Below the pieces are notes generated by a model. That model made no database searches, had not been told where the DNA came from, and was given only the letters and a program-made list of their open reading frames with translations. Shown here in pieces: positions 5,123-37,530 of a stretch of 64,000 nucleotides of DNA. Position numbers and translations under genes: made by a program. The stretch's first letter is position 1, and each line of letters opens with the position of its first letter. This DNA comes from an uncultured Pseudomonadales bacterium. Its GTDB lineage: Bacteria > Patescibacteriota > Microgenomatia > UBA1400 > CAYXSR01. The stretch is from the NCBI GenBank assembly GCA_964430265.1, contig CAYSEI010000002.1, forward strand, positions 20,769-84,768. The letters are read 5' to 3'.

Positions 5123-5926
5123 ATGTTTAGATTTTTTAAAAAATACCAAGCTACTTTTAATACCCAAATCAAAAATACCTTTGTTTACAGAGGAATGCTA
5201 ATAATTTGGATGATTGGTTGGTTATTATCTTTTTTAACTTCTGTCTTTCTCTGGAATTCTGCCCAAACAAAAGGAAGTTTAGCCGGTTTTACTAAGGACC
5301 AAATTATAAGTTATTATTTTATTGGTATGTTTGTCTGGCAGGTAGTTGGATGGTTTCCGTTTTATACAATAATAGAGAAAATAAGAAACGGAGAAATATC
5401 TAATATGGTTATAAAACCAATCAATTTTTATTGGTATATGTTTGTTCAAGAGCTTGCTTGGCACGTAGTTAATACTTTTATTTTTTCTTTATTGTTGTTT
5501 TTTATCTTTTTTTTAGTTAGAGCTAATCTTTTTTTGCAGTTTCAATTATCTAGTGTTTTCCTCTTTATCTTAGCTTTAGCAATTGCTGCTTTTATTGTTT
5601 TTGGGATGTCTATGATTTTAAGCACACTGGCTTTTTGGTTAATTCGTGCACAAGGAGTGGCTTCTTTATTTTGGATTCTTTTGTCCCTTTTAGGAGGGCA
5701 AATGCTTCCATTACGTTTTTTTCCCAGCCAATATCAGACTTTTATCAATATTACTCCTTTTAGGTTCATGTATTCTTTCCCTATTGAAATTCTCTTGGAA
5801 GATATGGGTAAAAATGAACTAATTTATTCTTTTTCCTTGGGAATTTTTTGGGTAATATTTTTTTACTGGCTTTTTCATTTATTATGGCAAAGAGGATTAA
5901 AAAATTTTACTGCCTGGGGAAGTTAA
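5123..5926 (+). CDS. ABC-2 family transporter permease (ABC2_membrane_6-like).
   Basis: Six TM segments. The N-terminus FKKY...NTFVYRG and overall architecture resemble ABC-2 permeases. No ATPase is adjacent. Confidence 0.55.
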   Translation: MFRFFKKYQATFNTQIKNTFVYRGMLIIWMIGWLLSFLTSVFLWNSAQTKGSLAGFTKDQIISYYFIGMFVWQVVGWFPFYTIIEKIRNGEISNMVIKPINFYWYMFVQELAWHVVNTFIFSLLLFFIFFLVRANLFLQFQLSSVFLFILALAIAAFIVFGMSMILSTLAFWLIRAQGVASLFWILLSLLGGQMLPLRFFPSQYQTFINITPFRFMYSFPIEILLEDMGKNELIYSFSLGIFWVIFFYWLFHLLWQRGLKNFTAWGS

Positions 5927-6721
5927 ATGAGGATCAAAAGGTATTTAAAACTGTTTTTGGAGTTTTTTAGATTTAGTTTTAAGGCTGATATTGAATTTCG
6001 CGGTAATCTGATATTTTATACAATTGAAAATATTTTGTGGCTGATTTTAGCAGTTGTAGGTATAAACTTAATATTCGGACAGATACATTCAATTGCAGGT
6101 TGGACAAAAAATGAAGTTTTTTTAGTGTTATTTATTGGTGCATTGTTTAGTGATTTATCTTGGACTTTAATATTTCGAAATTTAAACAAGTTTTCTCAGC
6201 TAATAAGAGAAGGAACTTTAGACTATTATCTTTTGAAACCTACTAACTTGCGTTTTTTACTATCTTTTCGAATCATAGAATTTGATCACTGGATAAGAAT
6301 TGTTCTGGAATTATTTTTAATTTATAAATACACACTTTTAACTAGCGGGTATTTATCATTTTTAAACATATTGTTATTTATTTTTGTTTTTATCTGCGGT
6401 TTTATTATTTTTTATTCAATATTTTTTGCAGCAACAATAACTAATATCTGGTTTGTTAAACTGGAAAACTTGGTTCATTTGTTTCAAAATATAAAAAATA
6501 TGGGTGATCGCCCGGTATATATTTATAAAAAAGGTTTTTTATTCTTTTTTTCCTTTATTCTGCCAATTGGATATATTGCCACCTTTCCTGCTCAGGCTTT
6601 GATGGGGGAAATAAGTACAATAAAATTAATTGCTGGTCCTATTTTGGCAATATTTCTTTATTGGCTATCGCATAGATTTTTCAAATTCGCCTTAAAATAT
6701 TATTCGTCAGCTTCAAGCTAA
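5927..6721 (+). CDS. ABC-2 family transporter permease, partner of the 5123 ORF.
   Basis: The IREGTLDYYLLKP motif is a hallmark of the ABC-2 permease family. The protein is polytopic. Confidence 0.6.
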   Translation: MRIKRYLKLFLEFFRFSFKADIEFRGNLIFYTIENILWLILAVVGINLIFGQIHSIAGWTKNEVFLVLFIGALFSDLSWTLIFRNLNKFSQLIREGTLDYYLLKPTNLRFLLSFRIIEFDHWIRIVLELFLIYKYTLLTSGYLSFLNILLFIFVFICGFIIFYSIFFAATITNIWFVKLENLVHLFQNIKNMGDRPVYIYKKGFLFFFSFILPIGYIATFPAQALMGEISTIKLIAGPILAIFLYWLSHRFFKFALKYYSSASS

Positions 6722-6744
6722 AACTTAGTATTAAACCTGTTAAC

Positions 6745-6772
6745 TTGACAAAAAATAGTAAAAGAGTATAAT
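6745..6772 (+). promoter_or_regulatory. Near-consensus sigma70 promoter TTGACA-16-TATAAT upstream of the DUF134 operon.
   Basis: Both hexamers are perfect in the sequence. The promoter lies about 45 nt upstream of the 6818 start. Confidence 0.45.
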
Positions 6773-6817
6773 AAGTTATGAACCATAGTTCAAAAGTTAA
6801 TTGATTAAATTAAAAAC

Positions 6818-7327
6818 ATGGTAAGACCAAAAAAACCAAGAACAATATCGCAAAAACCAAAAAACAGGTATTTCAAGCCTCGCTCTGTCCCATTGAATAA
6901 ACTGGAGCAAATAGAGCTTAAATTTGAAGAGCTGGAAGCGATTAAACTAGCTGATTTGAAAGATATGACGCATCAACAAGCATCGAAATTAATGAATATT
7001 TCTCGGCCAACGTTTACAAGGGTATTACAGTCAGCACGTTATAAAGTTGCCAAGGCGCTTAATAATGGCCAGGCAATTGAAATTAAAGGAGGTGAATATA
7101 AAATGAGTCCAAGAGGAAGAGGGTTTGGTCCAGGAAAAAGACAAGGTAGAGGTAGAGCAGCTGGTGGAAGAGGAAGAGGTAGGATGGGAGGACCTTTTGC
7201 AGCCGGTCCAGGGGGAAAATGTGTTTGCACAAATCCGGACTGTAAAAATGAAATAGAACATTTAGTAGGACAGCCCTGTTATCAAAAAAAATGTCCTAAG
7301 TGTGGAAGTCCAATGGTAAGAGAATAA
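6818..7327 (+). CDS. DUF134/UPF0251 predicted DNA-binding protein with a C-terminal Arg/Gly-rich (RGG) tract and a four-Cys zinc-ribbon extension.
   Basis: FKPRSVP...LKFEELEAIKLADL...ISRPTFTRVLQSARYKVAKALNNGQAIEIKGG matches DUF134 end to end. The tail GRGRAAGGRGRGR...CVCTNPDCKN...CPKCGSP is an add-on. Confidence 0.8.
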   Translation: MVRPKKPRTISQKPKNRYFKPRSVPLNKLEQIELKFEELEAIKLADLKDMTHQQASKLMNISRPTFTRVLQSARYKVAKALNNGQAIEIKGGEYKMSPRGRGFGPGKRQGRGRAAGGRGRGRMGGPFAAGPGGKCVCTNPDCKNEIEHLVGQPCYQKKCPKCGSPMVRE

Positions 7328-7365
7328 GTACAATTTAATAAAATATTAAAGAAGGGATTGCTGAT

Positions 7366-7752
7366 ATGACAAAAATTGCAATTGCAGCAACTGGGAATAG
7401 TAAACAAGATCAAGTAGATTCTCATTTTGGCAGGTGTCCGTATTTTTTCTTTGTCGACACTGAAAATGAAGAATATCATGCAGTTGAAAACCAGGCACAA
7501 AAAGCTTATGGAGGTGCGGGAATTTCAGCAGCTCAATTGATTGTTGATTCAAAAGCTGAAGCAGTGATAACAAAAAATATTGGGCCCAAAGCAGTTAGTG
7601 TTTTAAGTCAAACAGATGTAGATATATATCTGGCAGAGAAAGAACAAAATATTGAGCAAGCACTTAATGCCTTTAAAAAAGGTAAACTGGAAAAAATAAT
7701 AAAAGCAAATGTAGACATGGGAAGAGGCGGAAGAAGTAGAAAAAGTATTTAA
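7366..7752 (+). CDS. NifX/NifB-like dinitrogenase FeMo-cofactor-binding domain protein (Nitro_FeMo-Co family).
   Basis: HFGRCPYFFFVD, a central GGAG and the C-terminal VITKNIGPKA are typical of this domain. Confidence 0.8.
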   Translation: MTKIAIAATGNSKQDQVDSHFGRCPYFFFVDTENEEYHAVENQAQKAYGGAGISAAQLIVDSKAEAVITKNIGPKAVSVLSQTDVDIYLAEKEQNIEQALNAFKKGKLEKIIKANVDMGRGGRSRKSI

Positions 7753-7818
7753 ATTATTAAATAGAAAATATTAAAGTTTTGTAGATTTAAAAGAACTTAA
7801 TTATCAAATAAGGGAAAA

Positions 7819-9072
7819 ATGAATAATATAATGCAACTCAAAAAAGGTGAAAAGGTAGCACGCTCAGCCTTGATTTTAGAATCAATCTTGGCTGCAAGCA
7901 AAGCTATTGTCGGATACTTAAGTGGTAGTTTGGTTTTAATATCGGATGCAGTTCACAGTGCATCTGATCTTTTGCCTATTTTTGCCAGCTATTTGGGATT
8001 AAAAATTGCACAAAAAGATCCGGATGAGAAGTTTGCTTACGGATATTATAAAGCGGAAAATATTGCTTCTGCTATGGTTTCTGTATTAGTCCTTTTTGCC
8101 GGATATAAAGTTATTAGTTCTGGAATAAATAACCTGGATAAAATATCCTCCCCTAATATTCCTTTTATTGCTATGGCGGTGTCATTAGTAGATGCAGTTG
8201 TGCTTTTCTTTTTTGGTAAGTATGAAATTAAAGTGGCGGAGGAAATTAATTCAAACAGTTTAAAAACCATGGGTAAAGAAAACCGTACTCATATTTTTAC
8301 TTCTTCTACTGTGCTTGTGGGTATTTTAGCCAGCTACTTGGGAATTCCTTATTTAGAAGGAATATTTACAATCGGAATTTCCTTTTTAATATTTGAAATT
8401 GGGTTGACTTCAGGAAAGGATGCAATATTGGCTTTAATGGATGTTGTTCCGCAAAAAGAAATTGAAGAAAAAATTGCAAAAGCAATTGCTTCAGTTCCAG
8501 GAATTGAGGAATATTATGATTTAAAATTAAGACGTTCAGGACCATATATTTTAGGTGAAACTAAGGTAGGGGTAAGAAAATCGATTGATGTTAAAAAATC
8601 TCACGAAATCTCTGAAAAAGTGGAAGAAGCTGTTAAAAAAGAAGTTCAAGTAGTAGATTCTTTTACAGTTCATGTTGAACCGTTCAAAAGTGAGTATCAA
8701 CACCTTGTTTTACCAGTTAAGAGCAAAAAGGGTTTGCAAGCAGAAATTGCTCCCCAATTCGGCAGAGCTGCGTATTTCCTTTTTGTTAATTTGAAAAAGA
8801 ATGAAGTTAAAGGACATTTTACAACTGAAAATAAATATAAAAATAAAAAGGTTAGAGCTGGATTGGAAGCTGCAAAAATGATTGTACAAAAGAAGAGTAC
8901 TGCAGTTATAACTAGTGAGATGGGTGAAATTACTTTTCATTTTCTTAGGGATAATCTTTTTGATATTTTTAAAACAAGTGATAATAAAGCAGAAGGTGCA
9001 ATTGGAAAATTTAAAAAAGGACAATTAGAAATGTTGAAGCAGCCTACTAAGAAAGCAGAAGGAAATGAATAG
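7819..9072 (+). CDS. Cation diffusion facilitator (CDF) transporter fused to a C-terminal NifX-like (Nitro_FeMo-Co) domain.
   Basis: A CDF transmembrane domain (HSASDLL, six TM) and a CDF C-terminal domain are followed by QFGRAAYFLFVN...AVITSEMGE, which resembles the 7366 ORF. Confidence 0.8.
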   Translation: MNNIMQLKKGEKVARSALILESILAASKAIVGYLSGSLVLISDAVHSASDLLPIFASYLGLKIAQKDPDEKFAYGYYKAENIASAMVSVLVLFAGYKVISSGINNLDKISSPNIPFIAMAVSLVDAVVLFFFGKYEIKVAEEINSNSLKTMGKENRTHIFTSSTVLVGILASYLGIPYLEGIFTIGISFLIFEIGLTSGKDAILALMDVVPQKEIEEKIAKAIASVPGIEEYYDLKLRRSGPYILGETKVGVRKSIDVKKSHEISEKVEEAVKKEVQVVDSFTVHVEPFKSEYQHLVLPVKSKKGLQAEIAPQFGRAAYFLFVNLKKNEVKGHFTTENKYKNKKVRAGLEAAKMIVQKKSTAVITSEMGEITFHFLRDNLFDIFKTSDNKAEGAIGKFKKGQLEMLKQPTKKAEGNE

Positions 9073-9895
9073 AAAAAAAACTAAGAAAATTGCAATTACC
9101 GGAGGAAAAGGGGGAACAGGAAAATCAACTTTTTCTGTTTTATTAGCCAACAAATTATTATCAAAAGGTAAAAAAGTTGTTTTAATAGACGCAGATATTG
9201 AATGCCCCAATGATTACTTGTTATTAGGGGTTAAACTAAAAAATTCAGTAAAAGATATTAAAGCTCAATTTCCGCAATTGAACAAAGAGCCTTGTACTAA
9301 ATGTGGTAAATGTGTTTCCCAATGTCGATCCAATGCAATATTTCAAGCTCCGGGGAAGTATCCGATTTTTATCAGGGAATTATGTTCGGGTTGTGGTTTG
9401 TGCTGGCATATTTGTCCGGAAAATGTAATTGAAGTAGAAAAGGTTGTAATCGGAAAAACTTATGTTAATAAAATAAATTCTGATTTTACTCTTGTAACCG
9501 GAAGGTCAGTAGGAGTAGTGGATGAAACCGGACCGATTGTTACCAGTGTTAGGGAATACGTAGAAAAAAATTTAGATGCAGACATTATTTTAATAGATAC
9601 TTCGGTTGGATTGCACTGCGGTGTGATTCGTGCCTTAATTAATACTGATCTTGTTTATGCTGTTACTGAACCTACTCCTTTAGGAAAGCATGATTTACAG
9701 CTTATTCTTGAGCTGATTAATAAACTTGACCTTAAAAAGAAAGTGGTTGTAAATCAGGCTGATTTAGGGGATCAAACTCTTATTGACCCATTGATAAAAA
9801 AATATCAAACAGAAATCAGTTATAAAATTCCTTACTCAAAAAAATTAGTTGGTATGTATTCTCAAGGAAAATTAGGAGATTTAAACTTTTTATGA
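9065..9895 (+). CDS. MinD/ParA-superfamily P-loop ATPase with an inserted 4Fe-4S ferredoxin domain (COG1149-like).
   Basis: Walker A GGKGGTGKST. Two CxxCxxCxxxCP clusters (CTKCGKCVSQC, CSGCGLCWHICP). The start overlaps the upstream gene by 8 nt. Confidence 0.8.
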   Translation: MNRKKTKKIAITGGKGGTGKSTFSVLLANKLLSKGKKVVLIDADIECPNDYLLLGVKLKNSVKDIKAQFPQLNKEPCTKCGKCVSQCRSNAIFQAPGKYPIFIRELCSGCGLCWHICPENVIEVEKVVIGKTYVNKINSDFTLVTGRSVGVVDETGPIVTSVREYVEKNLDADIILIDTSVGLHCGVIRALINTDLVYAVTEPTPLGKHDLQLILELINKLDLKKKVVVNQADLGDQTLIDPLIKKYQTEISYKIPYSKKLVGMYSQGKLGDLNFL

Positions 9896-10770
9896 CAAAA
9901 AAAATAGCAGTTGCCTCTGGAAAAGGAGGAGTTGGTAAATCAATGCTAGCTTCTTCTTTGGCTTTATTACTTAGTAAGAGCAATAAAATAGTTGCTGTTG
10001 ATTGTGATGTTGATGCTCCCAATCTACATCTTTGGCTTGGGCAAAAAGAAGATTGGCAGGAAACAAAAAAAATTTCCACAAATGAAATTCCTGTAATTGA
10101 TAAAGAAAAATGTGCTTTATGCGGAAAATGTGTCTCAATTTGTGCTTTTGATAGTTTATCAATTGAAAACAAAGCTGTTAAACTGAATAAATTCTTTTGT
10201 GAGGGTTGTGGGGCTTGTGAAGCTGTGTGTCCGCAAAATGCAATTAAAATGAAAAAAATTCAAAACGCAGAAATCAGAATAAAACATGATGTTTTTGGTT
10301 TTCCTTTGGTGTCAGCCCAACTCTATCCAGGAGAAACAGGGTCAGGAAAAGTTGTTGAAGAAATAAAAGAGAAAGCAAAAAATTTTGAAAAAGAAATAAT
10401 GCTTATTGATTCTCCTGCAGGGACGGGATGCCCGGTTATAGCAGCTTTAAACGGGATAGATTTTGCAGTTTTAATAACTGAGCCAACGCCGTCAGGTCTT
10501 TCTGATCTCAGACGGGTATTACAAGTAGTCGATCATTTTAATATTCCTTTTAGAGTAGTAATCAATAAATGGGATATAAACAAACAAGTGACCAAAAAGA
10601 TTGAAAATGAATTTCAAGAAAAAATAATTGGTAAAATTTCTTATAACAAAAAATTCTTTCAAGCAATAGCCGAATTAAAACCAATAATGAAAACTAAGCT
10701 TCAGACAAAAAAGGAAATTAAATCAATATATAAAAATTTGGAGGCCTCGACCGGAATCGCACCGGTGTAA
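9892..10770 (+). CDS. Second MinD-like P-loop ATPase with a ferredoxin insert, paralog of the 9065 ORF.
   Basis: SGKGGVGKS Walker A. CALCGKCVSIC and CEGCGACEAVCP clusters. It overlaps the previous gene by 4 nt (ATGA). Confidence 0.8.
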   Translation: MTKKIAVASGKGGVGKSMLASSLALLLSKSNKIVAVDCDVDAPNLHLWLGQKEDWQETKKISTNEIPVIDKEKCALCGKCVSICAFDSLSIENKAVKLNKFFCEGCGACEAVCPQNAIKMKKIQNAEIRIKHDVFGFPLVSAQLYPGETGSGKVVEEIKEKAKNFEKEIMLIDSPAGTGCPVIAALNGIDFAVLITEPTPSGLSDLRRVLQVVDHFNIPFRVVINKWDINKQVTKKIENEFQEKIIGKISYNKKFFQAIAELKPIMKTKLQTKKEIKSIYKNLEASTGIAPV

Positions 10771-10813
10771 CTGGTTTTGCAGACCAGTGCATAAACTTCT
10801 CTGCCACGAGGCC
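10739..10813 (-). tRNA. tRNA-Cys (anticodon GCA), with U73 discriminator and an encoded CCA. The D-loop and T-loop are atypical.
   Basis: A GC-rich island sits in AT-rich DNA. On the minus strand there is a perfect 7-bp acceptor stem (GGCCTCG/CGAGGCC) and U8. The D-stem is GCAG/ATGC. The anticodon stem CTGGT/ACCAG carries loop CUGCAAA (U33, GCA, A37). The variable region is 4 nt. The T-stem is ACCGG/CCGGT with loop TGCGATT, followed by TCCA. G at position 55 and a single G in the D-loop are unusual. Coordinates are +/-2. Confidence 0.55.
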
Positions 10814-10876
10814 TTTCCTGTATATTTTATCACGCTTTCTTGTCAAGGCAAAATAACTGTGTTATTATCTATTTGA

Positions 10877-11838
10877 TGAAGCTCAGAAAGATTTTTTCTA
10901 TTTTAACCCTTTTTTTATTGACTTTCCTTCTTACGGGTTGTAATTTGCCTTTTATTGGTTCCAAAAAAAAGGCGGCACTACAAGTTATGTCTGAACCCAA
11001 AGCAACAGTATTTTTAAATGGTAATCATGTTGGTCAAACTTCATATTTTGATGAAGAACTTAAGCCTGGAGAATATACCTTAAAATTAATTCCGGAAGGT
11101 CAAGAAAACAAACAGTGGCAAAAAGATGTGCAATTAACTCCGGGCGTCTTAACAGTTGCCAATTACAATTTTAAAGAAACTGAAGAACAGTCAAATGGAT
11201 ATTTACTTAGTTTGGAACCGATTTCCCAAAAAGACAAGGCTCAACTTTCTATTATTAGTATGCCTGACGGAGCAGTTGTTTCTGTAGACGGAGAACCAAA
11301 GGGCTTTACACCTTTGTCATTGGATGAAGTAAATGAAGGGGAACACGTAATTAATATTTCCACTCCGGGATATCAAGAAACAGAAATTCAAGCAAAAACA
11401 ATAGCCGGATATAAACTCATTGCTAATGTGCAACTTGGTAGAAGTTTAGAAGAAGAAGCAACGGATTCTGCAGAAACTGATGAAGAAGCAACAGCATCAG
11501 CAGAAAAAGAGGATGCTGAAGATGAAACAATAGAAGAAAGTGACACTGAAGAAGAAACAACTACGGATACAGAAGAAACAGATACAGAGGAAGATGCACA
11601 AGTTTCTGATGAAGATATGGAAAGGCCGTATGTAGAAATAAAAGAAACTTCTACAGGTTGGTTAAATTTAAGAAGTGAACCTTCAACAGCTGAAGGAGAC
11701 GAAACAGTAATTAAAAAAATAGATCCCGGAGATAAATATCCTTTTATAGAGGTTAATGATACGGGTTGGTATAAAATAGAGTATGAAGAAGGAAAAGAAG
11801 GTTGGATTTCAGGAAAATACGCTGAATTGTACCGCTAA
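10877..11838 (+). CDS. Lipoprotein with PEGA domains, an acidic linker and a C-terminal SH3b-like domain.
   Basis: The lipobox LLTGC follows the internal Met (the track ORF starts 36 nt earlier at a TTG). PEGA-like segments (PEGQEN, MPDGAVVSVDGEPKGFTPL). A D/E/T-rich tract. A C-terminal TGWLNLRSEPS...WYKI...GWISGKY SH3b-type fold. Confidence 0.65.
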
Positions 11839-11841
11839 TAA

Positions 11842-12774
11842 TTAGCGCAGTCCGTATATAATTACAAATATAAAAAGACTCCATAAAACAACAGTTCCGA
11901 ATAAGGGTTTATCTGATATAAGAACTTCGGCTGGAGAATTACCTTCATTTTTTTGATAAATAAGCTGTAAATAGCGCATTACTCCGTATATTACTAAAGG
12001 AATTGTAATCATCATCAATTTTTCGCTGCGAAATGCTAAAGGAAGATCTCCCCAAATGTGGAGCAGCCTTCCACTAGGTTTCACCGGAGGCTGCAAAAAA
12101 GTAAATAAAGAATAAGTTAACCAAGTTGTGTTTCCAAACATAGCAATATATTGATCCAAAAGCTTTTCAGTATAGGTAAATAAGACCTTGCGGTGTTTTT
12201 CCGGTTCTTTTCCTTCAAGTAAAGTGAGTTCTGATCTTCTTTTCCCAACTGCTAAGAAAAGGGAAAAAGAAATAATACAAAGAAGTAACCATCCATTTAT
12301 ATGAGTATTAATTACTACTGCACCTGCATATACTCGTAAAATAAAACCCGAGGCTATGCTTATAACATCAAGAATCGGTACTGACTTTAAATAAACAGTA
12401 TATAAGACTTGCAGGATGAGATAAGCAAGGCAAGTAAGAAAGAAAAAAAAGTTAAGCTGTGAAGATAGGAAAAGACTGATTAAGACACCAGAAAAAGAGG
12501 CAAAAAGAGCTAAAGGAATAGGGAATTTGCCAGAAGCTATAGGTCGATGCTTTTTTAAAGGATGTTTTCTGTCCGAAGGTGCATCAACAATATCATTAAA
12601 TATATAAATAGAAGAGGTCAAAAAAGAAAATATAACAGTTGCAATAACAACAGTTAAAAATTTTTCAGGTATAAAAAGCCAACCGCTAAAAACTAATCCA
12701 GCAAATAAAGCTAGATTTTTTATCCATTGTATCGGTCTTGCTGATGTAAGGATGAGATTAAATAGTTTAACCAC
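11842..12774 (-). CDS. UbiA-family prenyltransferase resembling decaprenyl-phosphate phosphoribosyltransferase (DPPR synthase-like).
   Basis: The N-terminal RPIQWIKN and the NDIVDAPSD (NDxxDxxxD) motif. The protein is polytopic. Confidence 0.7.
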   Translation of the reverse strand: MVKLFNLILTSARPIQWIKNLALFAGLVFSGWLFIPEKFLTVVIATVIFSFLTSSIYIFNDIVDAPSDRKHPLKKHRPIASGKFPIPLALFASFSGVLISLFLSSQLNFFFFLTCLAYLILQVLYTVYLKSVPILDVISIASGFILRVYAGAVVINTHINGWLLLCIISFSLFLAVGKRRSELTLLEGKEPEKHRKVLFTYTEKLLDQYIAMFGNTTWLTYSLFTFLQPPVKPSGRLLHIWGDLPLAFRSEKLMMITIPLVIYGVMRYLQLIYQKNEGNSPAEVLISDKPLFGTVVLWSLFIFVIIYGLR

Positions 12775-25139: not shown

Positions 25140-26333
25140 TTGTTTGCAGAAATAATAATATTTATAAGCGTCTTTTTTATTTATTATATTTTAGGCAATA
25201 ATATTAATACAGGCCACGATTTTTTTGTTCCTCTTGCAGAGGCTTTTTTAAAAGGACGGCTTTATGTTAATAAAATGGCTTATGAGTTACACGAAATGGT
25301 CTCACTGGAGGAAGTAAAAACAGGGATATATAAACAGGTTGCTGACGGAAGCAAAGGAATTTTTTATGTTATTTATCCGCCAATGCCGGCAATTTTATTG
25401 ATGCCTCTTGTTTTAATTTGGGGTCAAGATTTTAACCAAAGCCTTTTTTCCATGCTTATTTGTTCTTTGAGTTCAGTTTTTGCTTTTAGACTTTTTAAAT
25501 CACTCAATTTAAGCATAAAAAAAAGCTTTTGGCTCTTAGCTCTTTTAGTCTTTGGATCAATGCAGTGGTATCACGGAACAATAGGATCCTCTTGGTATCT
25601 TTCTTTGGCATGCGCAATGCTTTTTTTATGGATAGCAATTAGTCTGACCCTAAAAAATAAATCACTTATTTTAATTGGTTTATTTTTAGGATTTGCATAT
25701 TTATCTAGGTTTTCCGTTATATTAAGCTTTCCTTTTTTCTTGATTAACACTCAAAAATTTTGGTTTAAGAAAAAAGGATTTAAAATTAAGCCATTACTTA
25801 TGTTTTTTTCGGGAATATTTTTATGTTTAGCTATTTCTTTTTTATACAATTATTTGCGTTATGGAACAATCTGGCATATTGGATATCACTTACTTGAAAA
25901 ACGTTGGTACAATATTGCAAATGAATATGCAGACGGTTCATATAGTCTGAGTTATTGGCCTCGTCACATCAAAGCTTTATTCTGGAGTTTTCCGCATAAA
26001 ATTAATGGATTTCCCTTTTTTGAACCCAATTATCATTCAATGGCAATTTGGATAGTTATGCCGGCTGTGATTTTGGCATTTTGGGCTCCCTTTAAGAAAA
26101 AGATTGTTTGGAGTAGCTGGTTAGTAATTATTTTAATTGCCTTATCACATTTTTTTCACGGCGGAGTTGGTGCAACTCAATTTGGATATCGATATGCAAT
26201 GGATTACTTTCCATTTTTATTCATTCTTTTTGTGCAGGCAATAAAAAAGAAATTTTACTGGTGGCAAAAAGTATTGATTATATTGAGTATTATTATTAAT
26301 TTGTGGGGCGTATATTTTAGTTTCTGGAGATGA
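25140..26333 (+). CDS. Polytopic membrane protein, probable GT-C-like glycosyltransferase or accessory protein.
   Basis: About 10 TM segments. It sits in the GT-C array. No diagnostic motif was recognised. Confidence 0.4.
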   Translation: MFAEIIIFISVFFIYYILGNNINTGHDFFVPLAEAFLKGRLYVNKMAYELHEMVSLEEVKTGIYKQVADGSKGIFYVIYPPMPAILLMPLVLIWGQDFNQSLFSMLICSLSSVFAFRLFKSLNLSIKKSFWLLALLVFGSMQWYHGTIGSSWYLSLACAMLFLWIAISLTLKNKSLILIGLFLGFAYLSRFSVILSFPFFLINTQKFWFKKKGFKIKPLLMFFSGIFLCLAISFLYNYLRYGTIWHIGYHLLEKRWYNIANEYADGSYSLSYWPRHIKALFWSFPHKINGFPFFEPNYHSMAIWIVMPAVILAFWAPFKKKIVWSSWLVIILIALSHFFHGGVGATQFGYRYAMDYFPFLFILFVQAIKKKFYWWQKVLIILSIIINLWGVYFSFWR

Positions 26334-27835
26334 AAATAAACTACAAATATTTAACTTTTGAAGTGCTAATTCTAATTTTAATTCTTGGATTACCTTTGTT
26401 GCTAATGTATCAGAGTATAGGCAAAAAAGGACCAACAATTGATGAACAAAATACATATATTCCAATAGTAGAAAATTTAATTCAAGGAAATAAATATTAA
26501 AATATATCCAAGAGCTATTTTCATCCACCATTGTCTTTTTATATTTCCTCTTTGACCTCTAAAATTTTTAAAACAAAAACATCTAGAATTACAATGTTGT
26601 CTGTTTTTATAACATTAGGAGTATTTTTTTTCTATGTTTCTAAGGCTAGCTTTAATAAGCTAACGGCTTTTTTATTATTGTTAATATATGCTTGGTTTCC
26701 GGAAATTTTAGCTCATTCTCGCTTAATAACGCCTGATATGACATTAGCATGTACGACTTTTATTTATCTTTATTTCTTATATTTGCTTTTGCAAAAGCAA
26801 AACTGGAAAAGAACTTTGTTTACGGGGCTAAGTTTAGGACTGGCTTTTATAAGTAAATATACAGCTTTAATGTTGATCCCTATCTCTTTATTATTACTTT
26901 TTGTAAATTTAATAAAACCCAAAAACAATATAAAAATGAAAATTTTTAGTTTGTTTGTAGTAATAATAACTGCTTTGTTTGTTATTAATTTCAGTTATAA
27001 TTTTCAGCAAAGTTTTTCTTTACCTGAATTTGAAAGTAGAACTTTTCAAAGATTAGAATCAAATCTTATAACTAATAAATTATTAAAAACAACACCATCT
27101 TTATATTTAAAAGGCTTAGATTTTCAACTTTATCAGTCAAGTTTGGATAATAGAAGAAATTTTTTTATGCAGCAAAGATCGTCCAAAGGAATTCCTCAAT
27201 ATTTTATTGGAACTTTTTTATTTAAAACTCCTTTACCGCTGTTAATTTTATTCTCAGCTAATATTTTATTTATAATTTTTATAAGTAAGGAAAAAAACTC
27301 TTTGCATTTTTTAATTCCGGTTTTGTTCTTTTTTGTTTACTTTAGTTTTTTTAATAATTTAAATATTGGTTTTCGTTACTTACTGATGATTTATCCATTA
27401 CTTATTTTTAGTTTAGGGGAATTTTTTGATTACATTTGCAAACAAAAAAAACAAATTTTTAAAATTATTCTTTTTTTATTGATAGCTTGGAATATATTAG
27501 AAACAATCAAAATACACCCTCATTATTTAGCTTATGCTAATCAATTAGCAGGAGGACCTCAAAATGGATATAAAATTTGGGCAGATTCTTCATTAGACTG
27601 GTTTCAAGACAATGATGCTTTTGGTAGATATTTAGACAAGAAACAGATTGATATCCCAATTGATCCACAACATCCTATTTTAGGAAAATTTGCTGTAAGT
27701 GTTTTTTCAATGAATAAAGAGAATTATTACGAATATCAGTGGTTAAGAGATTTAGAAAAAAAGCCTGTTGATCAATATGGATATACATGGTTAATTTTTG
27801 ATATAACAAAAGAAGATTTAGGGAAAATAGATTAA
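26330..27835 (+). pseudogene. GT-C (ArnT/PMT_2-like) glycosyltransferase gene interrupted by a single in-frame TAA at 26498-26500. It is either a pseudogene, a sequencing error or a recoding site.
   Basis: A 56-aa upstream ORF (MKINYKYLTFEVLILILILGLPLLLMYQSIGKKGPTIDEQNTYIPIVENLIQGNKY) lies in the same frame as the 26531 ORF. Reading through the TAA gives ...GNKY*NISKSYFHPPLSFY..., which restores the canonical TM1, DE-loop and HPPL N-terminus of GT-C enzymes. The ATG at 26330 overlaps the upstream TGA stop (ATGA). Confidence 0.55.
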
Positions 27836-27849
27836 ATAAATACTAATAA

Positions 27850-29502
27850 ATGAATAAGAAAATAAGAATACTGATACTTTTAATTTTTTTTACTTTAGGT
27901 TTAGTTTTAAGATTGTATAAATTAGGGTTAATACCGCCCGGTACTAATTGGGATGAAACAGTCGTTGGTTATACCGGTTATTCAATTCTAAAAACTGGGA
28001 AAGATGAATGGGGGAAAAAAATACCTATTTTTACTAAAGGTTTTGGTGATTATCGTTCCGCGGTATATTCTTATCTAACGACTGTTCCTATTAAGATATT
28101 TGGATTAACGCCTTTTGCTATACGGTTTCCTGCAGCTGTTTTAGGTTCAACCGGAATAATTGCCTTTTATTTTTTAATAAAAAATTTATTTGAATTTTAT
28201 AACTTAAAGGGGAAATCAAAGAATATCGCTGTTATTGGTGCGTTTTTATTTACAATTAATCCTTGGAACTTCTTTTTTAGCCGTTATGGCTTTGATGTGA
28301 GTAGTTGTTTTATATTTGGATTGTTCTCACTGACGTTTGTTTTTTTATTTTTAAACAAAAAAAAATATCTGCATTTATTTTTTTCAATTATTTTTGCTTG
28401 TTTAAGCATATATAGCTATCATAATGCAAGAATTGTGATTCCTTTTGTTTTTTTATTTTTATTTGTACAGAATTTTTCTATATTTATTAAAAATAGAAAG
28501 CAAATAGCATTAGTTTTTTTAACGGGTATTCTTTTATTTTTGCCTTTTTTGATATATGTAAAAACAGGCTTTCTATCAATAAGAACAAAAGAGCTTTCAA
28601 TATTTTCTAATTATTGGAAAAAACATGAATTAGAAAAATTACTAGTAAAAAGCACATTTTTAAGAAGTTTTGCTTTTTTTTATAAATATTTTTTTTACTT
28701 TCAGGAAATATTTAAAAATATCTTAAGAAATCTTTCTTTAAAATTTCTTTTCTTAGGAGAGGATTTACATTATCGTTTTGGAATTAAATACTACGGAAGG
28801 TTTTTATATCCTAGTTTAATTTTTTTGTTTTTAGGACTTTTCAAAATATGGACCAGGAATAAAAAATTGTTTGCTTTTTTAACATCTTTTATTTTAGTAT
28901 CTACGTTGCCAGCGGCATTAACAGTAGACAGCCCTCATCCTTTAAGAGTATATTTTCTTTTAATTCCTTTATTAATAATCATAACTTTTGGTATTTATTA
29001 TTCATTTAAAGGAAAAGCTATTAAATTTAAGCGCAGATTCTTAACAGGTGCTTTTATAGTCTATATGTTGTTTTTATCTTTATATATAAATGCTTACTTT
29101 AATTTTTTTAATGAGGAAGCGGATCAAAATTGGCAGTATTTTTATAGAGAATTAGTAGAATCTATAGATAATCAGTATAAAGATTATAATAGGATTTTAT
29201 TTGATATTCATTGGGGACAACCACATATATTTATGTTTTTTTATCAAAAAATAGATCCTTTAATTGTACAAAAAGAAATGAACAGAAAGGATCAGCTTAG
29301 CGAATCTCGTGGGGTTGTTAGCAGATTTCAAAATATTCATTTCAAAGATGTCCATGAGAGTGATATATTAAATTGTCATAATTGTTTAATAATTGAAGAT
29401 GAAAAGAGAACAAAGTTAGAGAAAAATAAAGTTGTAAAGGAATTAGAAAACATAAAACTGAATAACGGAAATACTATTTTTTGGATATATAAAACGATAT
29501 GA
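27850..29502 (+). CDS. GT-C fold glycosyltransferase, family 39/83-like (ArnT/PMT_2).
   Basis: The first loop NWDETVVGYTGYSILKTGKDEWGKKIPIF, a polytopic N-terminal half and a C-terminal soluble region. Confidence 0.7.
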   Translation: MNKKIRILILLIFFTLGLVLRLYKLGLIPPGTNWDETVVGYTGYSILKTGKDEWGKKIPIFTKGFGDYRSAVYSYLTTVPIKIFGLTPFAIRFPAAVLGSTGIIAFYFLIKNLFEFYNLKGKSKNIAVIGAFLFTINPWNFFFSRYGFDVSSCFIFGLFSLTFVFLFLNKKKYLHLFFSIIFACLSIYSYHNARIVIPFVFLFLFVQNFSIFIKNRKQIALVFLTGILLFLPFLIYVKTGFLSIRTKELSIFSNYWKKHELEKLLVKSTFLRSFAFFYKYFFYFQEIFKNILRNLSLKFLFLGEDLHYRFGIKYYGRFLYPSLIFLFLGLFKIWTRNKKLFAFLTSFILVSTLPAALTVDSPHPLRVYFLLIPLLIIITFGIYYSFKGKAIKFKRRFLTGAFIVYMLFLSLYINAYFNFFNEEADQNWQYFYRELVESIDNQYKDYNRILFDIHWGQPHIFMFFYQKIDPLIVQKEMNRKDQLSESRGVVSRFQNIHFKDVHESDILNCHNCLIIEDEKRTKLEKNKVVKELENIKLNNGNTIFWIYKTI

Positions 29503-30743
29503 AAATTTGGATAAAAACTCTAGTTGTATTTGGAATTTGTTTGCTAAGTTTATTATTGCGTTTTAAAGTCTTTCCATACAAAACTCATTGGTCGGACATG
29601 TTTTTTTGGAAGGACTGGGGAAGAGGAATACTTGAATATGGTACTAAAGGTTTTTATAAACAATTCGGCTCAGATTATCTACCATTTTATCCGCTTGTTT
29701 TGGGTGTAGTTAAAACAATTTATAATTATACACACGAACTTCTTAATATAAAAGATATTTATTACTACAAATTTCCCGCGGCAATTTCCGATATTTTTTT
29801 TGGTTATTTAATTTTTAGATTTTTAAAGGAAGTAAAGAATTATAAAGCCGGAATTTTAGGAATGATTTTATTTCTTTTTAATCCCGCTGTATTTGCAAAC
29901 TCAAGTATGTGGGGGCAAGTGGATGTGATAGGTACTTTATTTTTATTTGCCGGTTTTTATCTTTTATATAAGAAGAAATATTGGGTATCCGGATTGTTTT
30001 TGGGGTTATCTTTAGTTACTAAAGCCTTGTATTTAATAGCTATCCCGTATTTATTTTTACTATTTTTTAGAAAAGAGGATTTTTACATAAATATACATAG
30101 GAAAATTCTTAAAAAATGTTTCTTAGTTTTTCTGGGAATATTAGTTTCAATAATAGTTATTACTTTGCCTTTTGTAGAAGGTGGTCTTTTTGCAGTTTTT
30201 AAGTTTTTGTTTGAACGCTATAAGATTATTAGTGAAAGATATCCTTATACTTCAGTAAATGCATTTAATTTTTGGGGATTGGTGGAAAAAGAATTCTGGC
30301 TTTCTGATAAAAGAGGACCTTCCTTTTTGACTTATAACAAATGGGGAACACTAATTACTCTTTTATTGATTGCAGCTGTTTATATAAAAGGTTTTTTAAA
30401 TGCAATAAGAAAAAAATGGTTTTATTCTTTAGTTTTGGGGATATCTTTATTATTTTATTCCAGTTTTTTATTTTTGACCCGGATGCATGAACGGCACTTT
30501 TTTTATGTTATTCCCTTTTTAGCAGTTGCTGCGGTTATTAAGCACAGATTAATAATTGCTTATTTAATTACTAGTTTAACTTACTTATTAAGTTTGCACT
30601 TTGCTCTGGAATATTATTATCAGGCCAAAGCATATGTTTTTTCGTCTTTGCAGATCAATTTAATCAGCGGAGCCAATGTACTAGTGTTTTTTTGGTTATT
30701 GTTTGAGTTTTTACTTTTGACAAAAAATGAAAAAAAAATATAA
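29499..30743 (+). CDS. GT-C-like polytopic membrane protein, paralog A of a three-member tandem family.
   Basis: Shares YKFPAAISDIFFG, YPYTSVNAFNFW and LFLTRMHERHFFY motifs with the next two ORFs. Confidence 0.6.
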   Translation: MKIWIKTLVVFGICLLSLLLRFKVFPYKTHWSDMFFWKDWGRGILEYGTKGFYKQFGSDYLPFYPLVLGVVKTIYNYTHELLNIKDIYYYKFPAAISDIFFGYLIFRFLKEVKNYKAGILGMILFLFNPAVFANSSMWGQVDVIGTLFLFAGFYLLYKKKYWVSGLFLGLSLVTKALYLIAIPYLFLLFFRKEDFYINIHRKILKKCFLVFLGILVSIIVITLPFVEGGLFAVFKFLFERYKIISERYPYTSVNAFNFWGLVEKEFWLSDKRGPSFLTYNKWGTLITLLLIAAVYIKGFLNAIRKKWFYSLVLGISLLFYSSFLFLTRMHERHFFYVIPFLAVAAVIKHRLIIAYLITSLTYLLSLHFALEYYYQAKAYVFSSLQINLISGANVLVFFWLLFEFLLLTKNEKKI

Positions 30744-31938
30744 AAAACTTCTTATTTATTTAATAGTTGGATCAGTTATTTTAGTTATCCGCTATATTCT
30801 CAGTTTAAGAAAATATAATCTAGACATCTTAAATCATGCAGTTTGGACAGAAAAAGCCTTAGCTGATGGATTAAAAGGGTATTATAAAAGAATATATTCT
30901 CCCTATGCAGAAGCAAACTATCCGCCTTTTGCAAACCTGCTTTTTTATTTGTCACATAAAACTTATAGGATGCTAGGTTATTCCGGAGGTTTGAATAATC
31001 TTTTGGCTGCTTTTTATAAAATTCCTTTGATAATTGCTGATTTAATAATTGTTTTTTTATTGTTTAATATTTTTAAAAATAAAAAGAAAAAATTTAAAAA
31101 ATATTTTTATCCTTTCTTTTTTTTAATTAATATTGCTTTAGTTTATAACAGTGTTTACTGGGGGCAGTTGGAAAGTGTGATAACCCTGTTTTGTATGCTT
31201 TCCTTATATTTTCTTTTTAAAGAACCCAATTTATTAGCCTATGTTTTTTTTGCTTTGGCAGTTCTGACAAAACAGACAGCACTGGTTTTAACGCCGCTGT
31301 TTTTTTTACTCAGCTTAAAAAAACTTAATATAAAAAAAACAATTGTAGGAATGGGAATAATATATTTGATCATTTTTATCTTTTTTATTCCTTTTACAGG
31401 CAAAATTGATTTTTTTTATCCAGTGAGATTTTATTTGCAAACTTCAGGCGGACAACTTCACCAGAATCAAGCGACCGTAAATGCTTTTAATTTCTGGTTT
31501 TTATTAGGACAAAACAAAATTTCAGACAGCACCACCCTTTGGAAGTTGATTGATTATCGTCTGGTTTCAATTCTGATATGTTTATTATTTTTCTTGCCGA
31601 TATTAATAAAAGTATATAATAAAAAGCCTAAAATAATTTCAGTTTTTAAAGCTGCAGGACTTTTATTTTACATAGTCTTTCTTTTTTTAACCCGGATGCA
31701 TGAAAGGCATCTTTATCCTGCATTAGCGTTTTTAATTCCCGGTTTAAATTCAATTATTAGTCTATTATTGTATGTTATAATTTCATTTATACATTTTTTT
31801 AATATGGATTTTGTTTGGCAGGAAATGATGGCAGATCCTATACCTTCAACAATTTTTAAAGGTAAAATAATGGCAGGGATTCTTTTAGCAATGTTCGTTT
31901 ATTTTTATACAAATTTTTTGATAAGAAAAGAAAAATGA
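30727..31938 (+). CDS. GT-C-like polytopic membrane protein, paralog B.
   Basis: FYKIPLIIADL, QATVNAFNFW and LFLTRMHERHLYPAL motifs. Confidence 0.6.
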   Translation: MKKKYKKLLIYLIVGSVILVIRYILSLRKYNLDILNHAVWTEKALADGLKGYYKRIYSPYAEANYPPFANLLFYLSHKTYRMLGYSGGLNNLLAAFYKIPLIIADLIIVFLLFNIFKNKKKKFKKYFYPFFFLINIALVYNSVYWGQLESVITLFCMLSLYFLFKEPNLLAYVFFALAVLTKQTALVLTPLFFLLSLKKLNIKKTIVGMGIIYLIIFIFFIPFTGKIDFFYPVRFYLQTSGGQLHQNQATVNAFNFWFLLGQNKISDSTTLWKLIDYRLVSILICLLFFLPILIKVYNKKPKIISVFKAAGLLFYIVFLFLTRMHERHLYPALAFLIPGLNSIISLLLYVIISFIHFFNMDFVWQEMMADPIPSTIFKGKIMAGILLAMFVYFYTNFLIRKEK

Positions 31939-34406: not shown

Positions 34407-34410
34407 AGCC

Positions 34411-35013
34411 TTAAAACATTAAACCCAGAGCCATTAATAATGCGCCACCAATAGCCAATAAAATGGTTGGTGAAACAATGCCTGCTTCCGGCATTTCTTG
34501 CTGCGGTTCTACAAACTCGGGAGAAGGAGAAGCTTGAGCAATAAATACGCTTTCTTCCGGTGTTGGTTCAGGAGTTGGAGAAGGGCTTGGGTTTGGTTCC
34601 TCTGACGGTGATAAACTGGGTGATGAAGAGGGGGATATGTTTGGCGAAGGTGTTGGTGATGGACTTGGAGAGGGGGATGGCGACGGAGAAGGATTTAATG
34701 ATGGGATTGGACTCGGTGATGGTGATGGAGAGGGGGTTAATGAGGGACTTGGATTGGGTGAAATAGATGGAGAAGGTGATGGAAGAAGAGAAGGTGAGGG
34801 GTTGGGTTGACCGACTGTAAAAGATATTTCGCAGGTTCCGTCAGCTTGGTAAAATGTTTCCGGTTCTTTGGGTGCTTCACTGACTGCTGGCTTTGGTGAT
34901 TCTTCCGGAAGTTTCTTTGATTGATAAAGTTTAAAAGCAGTATAAGCAGCAACAACTGCTAAAACAATAGTTACTGTAATAATACTAATACTTAATACTT
35001 TGTTTTTATTCAT
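34411..35013 (-). CDS. Ser/Pro-rich repeat surface protein with a C-terminal sorting signal (MPEAG-IVSPT + TM).
   Basis: An N-terminal signal anchor. A tract of about 90 aa made of (N)PSPSxS repeats. The C-terminus EMPEAGIVSPTILLAIGGALLMALGLMF. Confidence 0.65.
   Translation of the reverse strand: MNKNKVLSISIITVTIVLAVVAAYTAFKLYQSKKLPEESPKPAVSEAPKEPETFYQADGTCEISFTVGQPNPSPSLLPSPSPSISPNPSPSLTPSPSPSPSPIPSLNPSPSPSPSPSPSPTPSPNISPSSSPSLSPSEEPNPSPSPTPEPTPEESVFIAQASPSPEFVEPQQEMPEAGIVSPTILLAIGGALLMALGLMF
34560..34800. repeat. Degenerate short tandem repeats encoding the (PSPS)n tract.
   Basis: Repeated ggtgatgg/ggagaggg-type units on the plus strand. The region lies inside the 34411-35013 CDS. Confidence 0.55.
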
Positions 35014-35015
35014 AT

Positions 35016-36359: not shown

Positions 36360-36360
36360 T

Positions 36361-37530
36361 TTATTTAATTCTTTTTATTAAGTAATAACAACTGATATAT
36401 ATATCATCATTCACTTCAATATCATCGTCTAAATATTCACCGTCATAAACAGGAGCTATTTCGTATTCACCTATATTCATTGTTTTTGCTGTGTTTTTTA
36501 ATTCTTCATTTTGGCTATTATAAGAGTCGTTCCCGATATTTTCTTCAAAAGCAACAGTATAATCACTATTTTGAGAAGTTAATTCTTGTTTTTTTTGCTC
36601 ACAAAGTTCAGAAAAGTTTTCTCTGTTTTCAGCTTTTTGTTTAATATCTTCCAATACGTTTTGAGTTTCTTGTTTTAATTGTTCTACCGGACTTATTGGT
36701 GGTTTAACGTTCCAAAAGCATATTCGACATTGATCTACCCAGGCAGAGCTTTCATCAACAGTTTTTGTTTTGATTAAAGCTGGATCGGCTTGAGATATTG
36801 GTTTTACTTGCTTTTCACTTTCTTGTTCTTGTTGAGAGTCTTCTTTTTGTTCTAAAGTATTATTCTGATTTTTATTCTGAGTTTCTTGAATATAATTTTC
36901 ATTTTTACTGAATAAGAAAGAGAAATTCATTTTGTTTTTTAAAATAAAGAAAAAAATTGCAATTAAAATAAGAGTTATTAGTAAGGGTAATAGAAAAATA
37001 ATTTTAGGTATACCTTTTGATTTTTGTTTTTCAGGTGTTTTAATATCATTTGGGGAAGTGTTATCGTTGTTCTGAATTTTGTGTGGTTTCTGAGGTGTTT
37101 CTAATTCCTTGTCTTGATTACTTTGTTTATCAGGTGATATTTTGTCATTTTGTATATTGTTTGATTCTGTTTTTGAGGTTTCCGGATTTTCCTTTGGAAC
37201 AGTAGAATCAATTCCTTCTTTTTCAATTTGTTTATCTACAAAGTTATTAGATACACTTTTATTATTAATAGGTTTTGTTACTGGTTCTGAGTTTTTTTTG
37301 CTCTTGTTTGATTTTTTTTTATTATGCCCTTCCGATGTTTCAGAGTCGGTTTTATTAGTAGAATTATCAAATGTATTTTCCATATTTTTATTCATAGGCT
37401 TAGGAGGCTCTGTTATTTTTTGCCCATTATCTGGGTTAGATTTTAGACTTGAATTTATTGCTTTCTGTGCCTGCTCTTCAAGATTAGATAATGAGTTATT
37501 TGAATTATTTGTTTCTTTTTGTTTATTCAT
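36361..37530 (-). CDS. Low-complexity N/K/Q/S/E-rich protein with a single central TM helix.
   Basis: A central IPKIIFLLPLLITLILIAIFFFILK helix. The compositional bias creates an antisense ORF, which is rejected. Confidence 0.5.
   Translation of the reverse strand: MNKQKETNNSNNSLSNLEEQAQKAINSSLKSNPDNGQKITEPPKPMNKNMENTFDNSTNKTDSETSEGHNKKKSNKSKKNSEPVTKPINNKSVSNNFVDKQIEKEGIDSTVPKENPETSKTESNNIQNDKISPDKQSNQDKELETPQKPHKIQNNDNTSPNDIKTPEKQKSKGIPKIIFLLPLLITLILIAIFFFILKNKMNFSFLFSKNENYIQETQNKNQNNTLEQKEDSQQEQESEKQVKPISQADPALIKTKTVDESSAWVDQCRICFWNVKPPISPVEQLKQETQNVLEDIKQKAENRENFSELCEQKKQELTSQNSDYTVAFEENIGNDSYNSQNEELKNTAKTMNIGEYEIAPVYDGEYLDDDIEVNDDIYISCYYLIKRIK

Follow-up and report, generated by a model that had tools for sequence, protein, structure and literature searches.

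A five-gene operon in the 64 000-nucleotide stretch of contig CAYSEI010000002.1 analysed here (hereafter the window), from a bacterium of the candidate phyla radiation (CPR), encodes a cation diffusion facilitator (CDF) transporter covalently joined to a NifX-type domain (CDF::NifX). Its five + strand open reading frames (ORFs) span 6818–10770 in the order regulator, stand-alone NifX-type protein, CDF::NifX fusion, ATPase 1 and ATPase 2. We favour, tentatively and with a little less than even confidence, the reading that the operon is an iron–sulfur (Fe–S) handling module of the ORP/IssA type combined with an exporter of the iron/manganese clade and autoregulated by a DUF134 protein that senses a metal or Fe–S, both the metal and the mechanism being putative. 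New here are the CDF::NifX fusion and a cysteine-rich module of the regulator, termed Cys6His; neighbourhoods of the ORP (orange protein) and IssA types are already known.

Public databases annotate the proteins of the operon only as CDF transporter, DUF134 or hypothetical. In the literature we found no paper describing a CDF::NifX fusion, no description of the Cys6His module and, for DUF134, incidental mentions only, with no functional study. The original prediction, made from the letters of the window, had proposed a metal or Fe–S/metallocluster handling system in an organism that presumably does not fix nitrogen. This is still the best reading, and in Pfam searches neither 40 further ORFs of the window nor the surroundings of the operon in related loci yielded any gene of the nif, suf, isc or feo type. 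The proposed tight coupling of the five genes was confirmed by the ORF coordinates: the first two gaps measure 38 and 66 nt, and the last three genes overlap by 8 nt (9065–9072) and 4 nt (9892–9895). When each ORF was searched against Pfam with hidden Markov models (HMMs), every domain call scored above its gathering cut-off.

The CDF::NifX fusion

Three domains follow one another in the fusion gene (7819–9072, + strand, 417 aa): a six-helix transmembrane domain (7819–8439; Cation_efflux PF01545, 134.7 bits, cut-off 26.6), a cytoplasmic dimerisation domain (8449–8685; ZT_dimer PF16916, 62.9 bits, cut-off 26.7) and a NifX-type domain (8695–9033; Nitro_FeMo-Co, 38.5 bits, cut-off 26.3). Since the last lies directly after the cytoplasmic dimerisation domain, it follows from known CDF topology that it should face the cytoplasm. 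The AlphaFold2 (AF2) model of the fusion has a predicted local distance difference test (pLDDT) score of 87.8 and a predicted template modelling (pTM) score of 0.68, and residues 281–410, the junction included, reach a pLDDT of 90–96. Its best Foldseek match is YiiP (8f6e, E = 5e-15), with only ~280 residues covered, and among solved CDF structures Foldseek found none with such a C-terminal domain.

The fusion had been named in the original prediction, and it is real. All three domains are present in each of 240 homologues listed from NCBI, JGI, ENA and Logan assemblies, namely the best 120 of the window fusion (50–73% identity; 120/120) and the best 120 of a 43%-identical relative (120/120), while the NifX domain stands directly after the CDF and in the same frame in 93 of the 93 loci fetched. 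The junction motif HVEPFKSxxxHLVIPV is conserved, with P288 and P299 invariant and E287 and H295 near-invariant. An assembly chimera or a frameshift near 8700, with the adjacency of the genes being coincidental, was considered and rejected: no point in its support was found, and the conserved junction, the 240 homologues, the 93 loci and the confident AF2 model across the junction refute it and leave it practically no probability.

Among the source names of the homologues are Microgenomates, Shapirobacteria, Wolfebacteria, Portnoybacteria and the 'Patescibacteria group', with single records labelled Firmicutes and Aenigmatarchaeota; the fusion is found across both Microgenomates and Parcubacteria. 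A scan of genome contigs with a single fusion protein gave at least two loci, on metagenome-assembled genomes labelled Gammaproteobacteria, a label that we doubt. By its sequence distribution, CDF::NifX forms a large, CPR-wide family of proteins and is no peculiarity of one genome.

Kinship and metal sites of the transporter

The fusion exceeds the general CDF model (TIGR01297, 197.4 bits, cut-off 82.35). Among specific CDF models it scores best against MamM (150.7 bits), MamB (141.1), MntE (115.7) and FieF (99.1); ZitB (34.7) and DmeF (24.5) follow at a wide distance. With FieF/YiiP, MamM/MamB and MntE it has in common the six-helix transmembrane and cytoplasmic dimerisation domains and the H/D-x3-D motif of transmembrane helix 2 (TM2). 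There are nevertheless differences. One is the added C-terminal NifX domain. Another lies in the transmembrane site, H46-D50/E154-H158, which is polar and in which the TM2 motif is present but TM5 carries a non-canonical E-x3-H instead of H-x3-D. In the cytoplasmic part, H262, H285 and E287 align with H261, H283 and D285 of the YiiP cytoplasmic site (three of its five residues kept). Residues D43, H46, D50, E154 and H158 are invariant, the four of the transmembrane site among 65 sequences, which argues for a working exporter rather than a mere anchor.

Nothing known to us points to a mineral compartment in CPR bacteria. In the magnetosome of Desulfovibrio magneticus RS-1, a NifX-type domain and a MamB-like CDF serve one iron-handling process, as separate proteins, with the NifX-type domain in FmpB beside magnetochrome and PDZ domains (PMC4287615). 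In an ANME-2a genome, too, genes of the NifX family and genes for Fer4 and P-loop proteins are neighbours of a CDF, here an unfused one (PMC12622379).

The NifX-type modules

The stand-alone NifX-type gene (7366–7752, + strand, 128 aa) matches PF02579 (Nitro_FeMo-Co) at 83.6 bits, against the same cut-off of 26.3 as the fused domain, and the two modules are 34% identical to each other. The original prediction had counted three NifX-related modules, of which these two, one stand-alone and one fused, are the only ones detectable. The solved relatives of the stand-alone protein are MTH1175 (1eo1, 70.2 bits), TM1290 (51), the Desulfovibrio ORP (2wfb, 42.8), TM1816, PH0822 and MJ0327, with no NifX or NafY chain among them at E <= 1; the best solved match of the fused domain is likewise MTH1175 (39.7 bits). 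With NifX, NafY and the C-terminal domain of NifB, the modules share PF02579 and the fold, but they differ from them in a setting in which no nif gene was found among the window ORFs scanned or in the flanks of related loci. Judged by these matches, the NifX label holds at superfamily level only.

The MTH1175-type NifX domain was assigned by Vaccaro et al. to the IssA clade of Fe–S storage proteins (PMC5524996). IssA of Pyrococcus furiosus stores thioferrate and uses its NifX-type domain, along with a cationic Gly-rich tail, to bind Fe and S (PMC5524996), and growth of M. voltae on FeS2 is accompanied by a rise in IssA-clade proteins (PMC9431491). The modules of the window resemble IssA in the NifX-type globular domain, for which both match MTH1175 best among solved structures. 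As to the tail, the stand-alone protein ends in a short cationic one, MGRGGRSRKSI (~12 residues), its orthologues carry longer Gly/Arg-rich (GRG-rich) tails of ~15–25 residues, and the linker of the regulator is of the same character. Unlike IssA, one of the two modules here is covalently joined to a transporter.

These rankings also bear on whether the cargo could be something other than iron, either a thiomolybdate/tungstate–copper cluster such as the orange protein carries, or Zn, Co or Ni exported by the CDF with the NifX part as chaperone or sensor. Most characterised CDFs transport Zn, Co or Cd, yet the present one resembles ZitB and DmeF far less than it does the Fe/Mn types. The orange protein is a detectable relative of the stand-alone module and, according to work cited in PMC6345978, binds a Mo–Cu cluster; it ranks, however, under MTH1175 and TM1290. 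An archaeal locus in which a NifX domain is joined to the Cys6His module (see below) lies near MoaA, MoaC and MoCF genes, and a link to Ni and F430 has been proposed for the unfused ANME-2a neighbourhood (PMC12622379), but no molybdopterin or F430 gene adjoins the operon in the bacterial loci. We regard a non-iron cargo as quite unlikely.

The ferredoxin-containing ATPases

ATPase 1 (9065–9895, + strand, 276 aa) and ATPase 2 (9892–10770, + strand, 292 aa) each combine a CbiA/ParA-type P-loop domain with two Fer4 motifs inserted at about residues 66–125. The resulting 2×[4Fe–4S] ferredoxin inserts are encoded at ~9275–9439 and ~10087–10257. Pfam scores of 59.9 (CbiA) and 39.5 bits (Fer4) for ATPase 1 and of 69.7 and 42.7 bits for ATPase 2 bear out the two MinD-like Fe–S ATPases of the original prediction. 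The two proteins are 33% identical, and both have a deviant Walker A motif with the signature lysine and a Cys at the NifH-like switch-II position. In ATPase 1 the Walker A motif reads GGKGGTGKST and conserved Cys residues lie in ECPN and DTSVGLHCGV; in ATPase 2 the conserved motif is DSPAGTGCPV. Among solved structures, none with this architecture of P-loop plus ferredoxin insert was found.

A tRNA-Cys(GCA) gene on the − strand (10739–10813) converges on the operon and overlaps the fifth ORF over its final 32 nt. The C-terminus of ATPase 2 (…EASTGIAPV) is a few residues longer than in most orthologues, apparently by read-through into this antisense gene.

A close described counterpart is the ORP complex of Desulfovibrio, whose core consists of paralogous MinD-like ATPases with two [4Fe–4S] motifs and of small NifX-like proteins (PMC6345978, PMC8359166). 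MrpORP hands clusters on to the ATPases of this complex, Orp3 and Orp4, and an Fe–S redox sensor governs the orp operons (PMC6345978, PMC8359166). The window operon has the same pair of paralogous ATPases with two [4Fe–4S] motifs each, small NifX-type proteins (Orp5 and Orp8 in the ORP complex), a dedicated regulator with a Cys-rich sensory part and a tie to an anaerobic lifestyle. The likeness to Orp3/Orp4, which share 41% similarity compared with the 33% identity here, is drawn from their published description. There are also clear differences. Neither the window operon nor the related loci have an Mrp/NBP35::NifX protein (Orp9/MrpORP), the MrpORP model NF041136 giving only partial hits of 35–50 bits against a cut-off of 450. 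The genes here form one sigma-70 operon with DUF134, whereas the ORP genes form two divergent sigma-54 operons under OrpR and IHF. The CDF::NifX membrane protein and the Cys6His module are additions, and the host is a CPR bacterium. The original prediction had called this neighbourhood recurrent but uncharacterised. It is recurrent, but not wholly uncharacterised, since the ORP core and the IssA-clade NifX proteins are known (PMC6345978, PMC8359166, PMC5524996).

Two other functions can be read from the ATPases. In the first, the operon would serve not storage and overflow but the maturation or delivery of Fe–S proteins, as a simplified route of the ORP/Mrp type in which the NifX modules are cluster carriers and the ATPases scaffold or insertase; the CDF part would then be mainly a membrane anchor or a local tuner of Fe(II). 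MrpORP is a donor of clusters to Orp3/Orp4 and binds an Fe–S cluster with its NifX-type domain (PMC6345978), IssA reconstitutes ferredoxin in vitro (PMC5524996), both ATPases have the NifH-like switch-II Cys, and for this genome a scan confined to the window turned up neither a suf nor an isc gene. The missing Mrp/NBP35 protein, with its merely partial MrpORP hits, speaks against this route, as does the lack of a cysteine desulfurase or scaffold in any related locus. Moreover, the invariant transport residues suggest a working exporter rather than an anchor, and the fusion stands without the ATPases in about one-fifth of loci. On balance we consider the maturation route rather unlikely.

In the second, the ATPases would be MinD-like positioning or division factors, and the metal-related genes would merely supply or regulate their clusters. 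Such a role was the first to be proposed for the ORP complex, and loss of orp expression leads to morphological defects in Desulfovibrio (PMC6345978, PMC8359166). A C-terminal amphipathic helix of the MinD kind has been reported for Orp3 and Orp4 (PMC6345978, PMC8359166), and ATPase 2 ends, by its sequence, in a helix that is possibly amphipathic. A positioning role is nevertheless very unlikely. The ATPases reach only 45–60 bits with the MinD models TIGR01968 and TIGR01969, below cut-offs of 212.9 and 201.75. The Pfam hits in the flanks of related loci include no minC, minE or fts gene and those of the 40 further window ORFs no minC or minE, although neither set was searched specifically for minC or minE. 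The conserved CDF::NifX fusion and Cys6His module would be left unexplained.

The regulator, its Cys6His module and a candidate operator

The first gene (6818–7327, + strand, 169 aa) contains DUF134 (PF02001, 96.1 bits, cut-off 27). The call made in the original prediction thus stands, but the Cys6His module and the operator palindrome had been missed. Instead of ~100 residues, the protein has 169, made up of a helix-turn-helix (HTH) domain, a disordered Arg/Gly-rich linker and the Cys6His module. In the AF2 model the HTH domain has a pLDDT of 80–92, residues 97–125 fall below 50 and the C-terminal tail, small and rich in beta structure, reaches ~81–85. The HTH domain superposes on the DNA-binding domain of DeoR and on sigma region 4 with a root-mean-square deviation of ~0.7 Å over ~41–50 residues; a fold search with the model gave matches for the HTH domain only and none for the Cys6His module. 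The search for full-length homologues of the regulator found 335.

The Cys6His mini-domain (MGGPFAAGPGGKCVCTNPDCKNEIEHLVGQPCYQKKCPKCGSPMVRE; 7184–7324, + strand, residues 123–169) follows the pattern GRMGGPxAAGPGGxCxC..C..H..PC..CPxCG. C135, C137, C142, H148, C154, C159 and C162 are invariant among 59 sequences, as are G121 and R122 just before the module. Pfam and NCBIfam have no family for it and gave sub-threshold zinc-ribbon hits only. An exhaustive search of 1.84 billion cluster representatives returned 401 relatives, most of them stand-alone proteins of 50–110 aa with an RG-rich N-terminus. Upstream of CDF::NifX, the module is present in 66 of 71 loci and is the most constant neighbour of the fusion. 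It occurs there either as part of the DUF134 protein or on its own where DUF134 is missing or has diverged, and some loci consist of nothing but the module and the fusion. In an archaeal protein (P0327) it is joined to a NifX domain by a Gly/Arg/Met-rich linker, and the gene lies directly upstream of two overlapping MinD–Fer4 genes on a contig with Cdc6 and RFC genes nearby. These archaeal and bacterial loci together link the Cys6His module, NifX-type domains and the ATPase pair across both prokaryotic domains.

The module also occurs in other contexts. Five proteins of 240–340 aa (P0265, P0293, P0382, P0313 and P0344) contain it behind a common N-terminus, MPAELE..IKREHPGM; three (P0242, P0247 and P0249) have tandem copies; and one of 1514 aa (P0241) shows 26 matches to part of it.

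The near-consensus promoter of the original prediction proved to be exact. At 6745–6772 (+ strand), a sigma-70-type promoter with −35 TTGACA (6745–6750), a 16-nt spacer and −10 TATAAT (6767–6772) agrees with the consensus at 12 of 12 positions, the sole perfect match within 6500–11200. TTGACAA-N16/17-TATAAT also stands 5' of the first gene in related loci, where the spacer sequence varies. An Rfam scan of the operon found the tRNA only, with no riboswitch or leader.

Seven nucleotides past the −10 element, and hence over the expected transcription start, begins a candidate operator, the perfect palindrome TGAACCATAGTTCA (TGAA-N6-TTCA; 6779–6792). It is the sole TGAA-N6-TTCA in the 64 kb window, a count that in itself is not significant (1 found, 3.5 expected); the weight of the palindrome comes from its position and its conservation in relatives. 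At the same place the relatives have the perfect palindrome TGAATATATATTCA or GGGTATATATTCA, their consensus promoter being directly followed by GGGTATATATTCATA or by TGAATATATATTCA, and these sites have the TGAA-N6-TTCA half-sites in common with that of the window. The motif lies 15–50 nt before the start codon in 24 of 28 loci in which DUF134 is fused to the Cys-rich module, compared with 4 of 10 in which DUF134 is divergent and 5 of 29 in which the locus has none. It thus tracks DUF134 (Fisher p = 6e-6, with loci partly redundant). We infer, with good support, that the DUF134 protein would bind the palindrome and autoregulate the operon at its transcription start.

On a contig labelled Cloacimonetes (L094, 7001–8412), a regulator of the same DUF134::Cys6His type precedes two small genes, of 152 and 147 aa and without a Pfam hit, which stand in place of the CDF::NifX operon. 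From this gene order, the regulator type appears also to control other cargo.

Conservation of the neighbourhood

A metagenome scan with an alignment gave 393 stretches encoding a relative of the fusion, of which 93 loci were fetched and searched with HMMs built from six orthologous operons with differing flanks; the loci are partly redundant and the counts approximate. ATPase 1 lies downstream of the fusion in 48 of 58 loci with enough flank, and both ATPases do so in 46 of 58 with at least 1.9 kb downstream. The stand-alone NifX gene is upstream in 45 of 58 loci with at least 1.3 kb on that side. Where both flanks are available, 18 of 44 loci have exactly the architecture of the window, and most others are permutations of the same parts. 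The operon is conserved amid different flanks in independent genomes; its limits were set by these differences between relatives.

Additional genes occur in some relatives. A YibE/F-family gene, absent from the window, follows the second ATPase in 16 of 48 related loci. Its product, a membrane protein of ~370 aa with a signal peptide, is often encoded in overlap with ATPase 2 (L007 10172–11278, L011 8936–10039, L012 8926–10044). Locus L007 has an extra gene for a 395-aa protein between the ATPase genes (8063–9250), and a similar gap is present in L016, L017, L020, L028 and L032. Read by eye, this protein begins with a thioredoxin-like part containing CPHC, and its membrane part looks CcdA/DsbD-like; the sole Pfam match is a weak one to SfLAP.

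Proposed function

The reading that we favour, an ORP/IssA-type Fe–S handling module with an Fe/Mn-clade exporter, builds on several links. Domain fusions connect its parts: CDF with NifX (93/93), NifX with Cys6His in the archaeon, and DUF134 with Cys6His. The operon is kept amid different flanks, 18 of 44 loci having an identical architecture; both NifX modules are closest to MTH1175 of the IssA clade; the CDF scores best against MamM, MamB, MntE and FieF and keeps residues of the YiiP cytoplasmic site; Orp3/Orp4 provide a parallel for the ATPases; and the operator motif co-occurs with DUF134.

We propose the following scheme. The DUF134 protein, as its fold and the conservation of the site suggest, would bind the TGAA-N6-TTCA palindrome over the transcription start and repress the operon. 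Its linker-tethered Cys6His module, rubredoxin- or zinc-ribbon-like, may bind Fe or an Fe–S species and thereby alter DNA binding. By analogy with IssA, the stand-alone NifX protein, of the MTH1175/IssA type and with a cationic tail, would hold inorganic Fe–S species in the cytoplasm. ATPases 1 and 2 would pair as an ATP-dependent dimer, like other proteins with a deviant Walker A motif, with eight predicted [4Fe–4S]-binding motifs, and on the model of Orp3/Orp4 and of ATPases of the NifH/CooC/Mrp type they may serve to load the NifX modules, to unload them or to reduce what they carry. The CDF would act as a proton-coupled exporter of divalent cations of the Fe/Mn clade, and the fused NifX domain might either pass Fe(II) from the Fe–S pool to the transport path or gate the pump by the Fe–S load. 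The net effect, in habitats that are anoxic and sulfidic, would be a buffering of iron and iron sulfide with export of any surplus.

A number of points weigh against this proposal. The first concern the transporter. Its scores lie far below the NCBIfam equivalog cut-offs of MamM, MamB, MntE and FieF (350, 350, 500 and 420), so that it belongs to none of these families. The transmembrane metal quartet is DD-HD in YiiP and HD-HD in ZitB and ZnT; because the site of the window CDF is not DD-HD as in YiiP, its specificity cannot be read from it. The second concern the NifX modules. The fused domain has no conserved Cys and therefore cannot ligate a classical cluster by thiolates, and the assignment to the IssA type follows best-hit ranking rather than a phylogeny with IssA. 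IssA has a tail of 70 residues and forms nanoparticles (PMC5524996), whereas the tail of the window protein has ~12 residues. What the ORP complex does is itself still termed unclear (PMC8359166). For the Cys6His module, a purely structural role as a zinc ribbon is conceivable. The export of iron looks odd for a system whose ATPases would need ~32 Fe per dimer. Finally, the scheme is inferential with regard to the metal, the NifX cargo, the Cys6His ligand and the direction of regulation.

Flanking genes and other features of the window

The genes on either side are unrelated to the operon: upstream, two ABC-2 permease genes (5123–6721); downstream (10840 to 12774), a PEGA/SH3 protein, the N-terminus of which we take, reading it by eye, to be a possible lipoprotein signal, and a − strand UbiA prenyltransferase. 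The products of the 40 other window ORFs scanned have housekeeping and envelope functions that are usual for the CPR. A stretch with a GC content of 0.26–0.28 (26000–32000) coincides with several PMT-like glycosyltransferase genes, and a GC peak of 0.38 (34000–36000) with − strand ORFs (34411–37530) without a Pfam hit. An ATP-dependent DNA ligase with DNA_ligase_A_N, _M and _C domains is encoded at 49987–51750.

Implications

NifX-type proteins outside nitrogen fixers and the adjoining ORP-type ATPases are widespread in anaerobes, and more than a decade on their role is called unclear. The operon offers three handles on this problem: a covalent link between a NifX-type domain and a metal exporter from the iron/manganese clade; a new Cys6His module, invariant and found in company with NifX-type domains in Bacteria and Archaea alike; and a simple promoter–operator pair. 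Together they make the metal that is moved, the ligand of the NifX domain and the signal of the regulator testable.

It is conceivable, if unlikely, that the operon represents an unrecognised route in which inorganic Fe–S would be held on NifX/IssA-type domains and Cys6His, processed by the pair of ferredoxin ATPases and handed directly to a transporter. If so, it would be a pathway of Fe–S overflow or export, or a primitive Fe–S supply independent of SUF and ISC, in ultra-small bacteria, and the long-unexplained ORP-type clusters of anaerobes would gain a function. CPR bacteria have been reported to encode CDF transporters only rarely (PMC6744442). Since an elaborated CDF is nevertheless conserved in these reduced genomes, the operon suggests that the balance of iron or iron sulfide is a real constraint on the CPR lifestyle.

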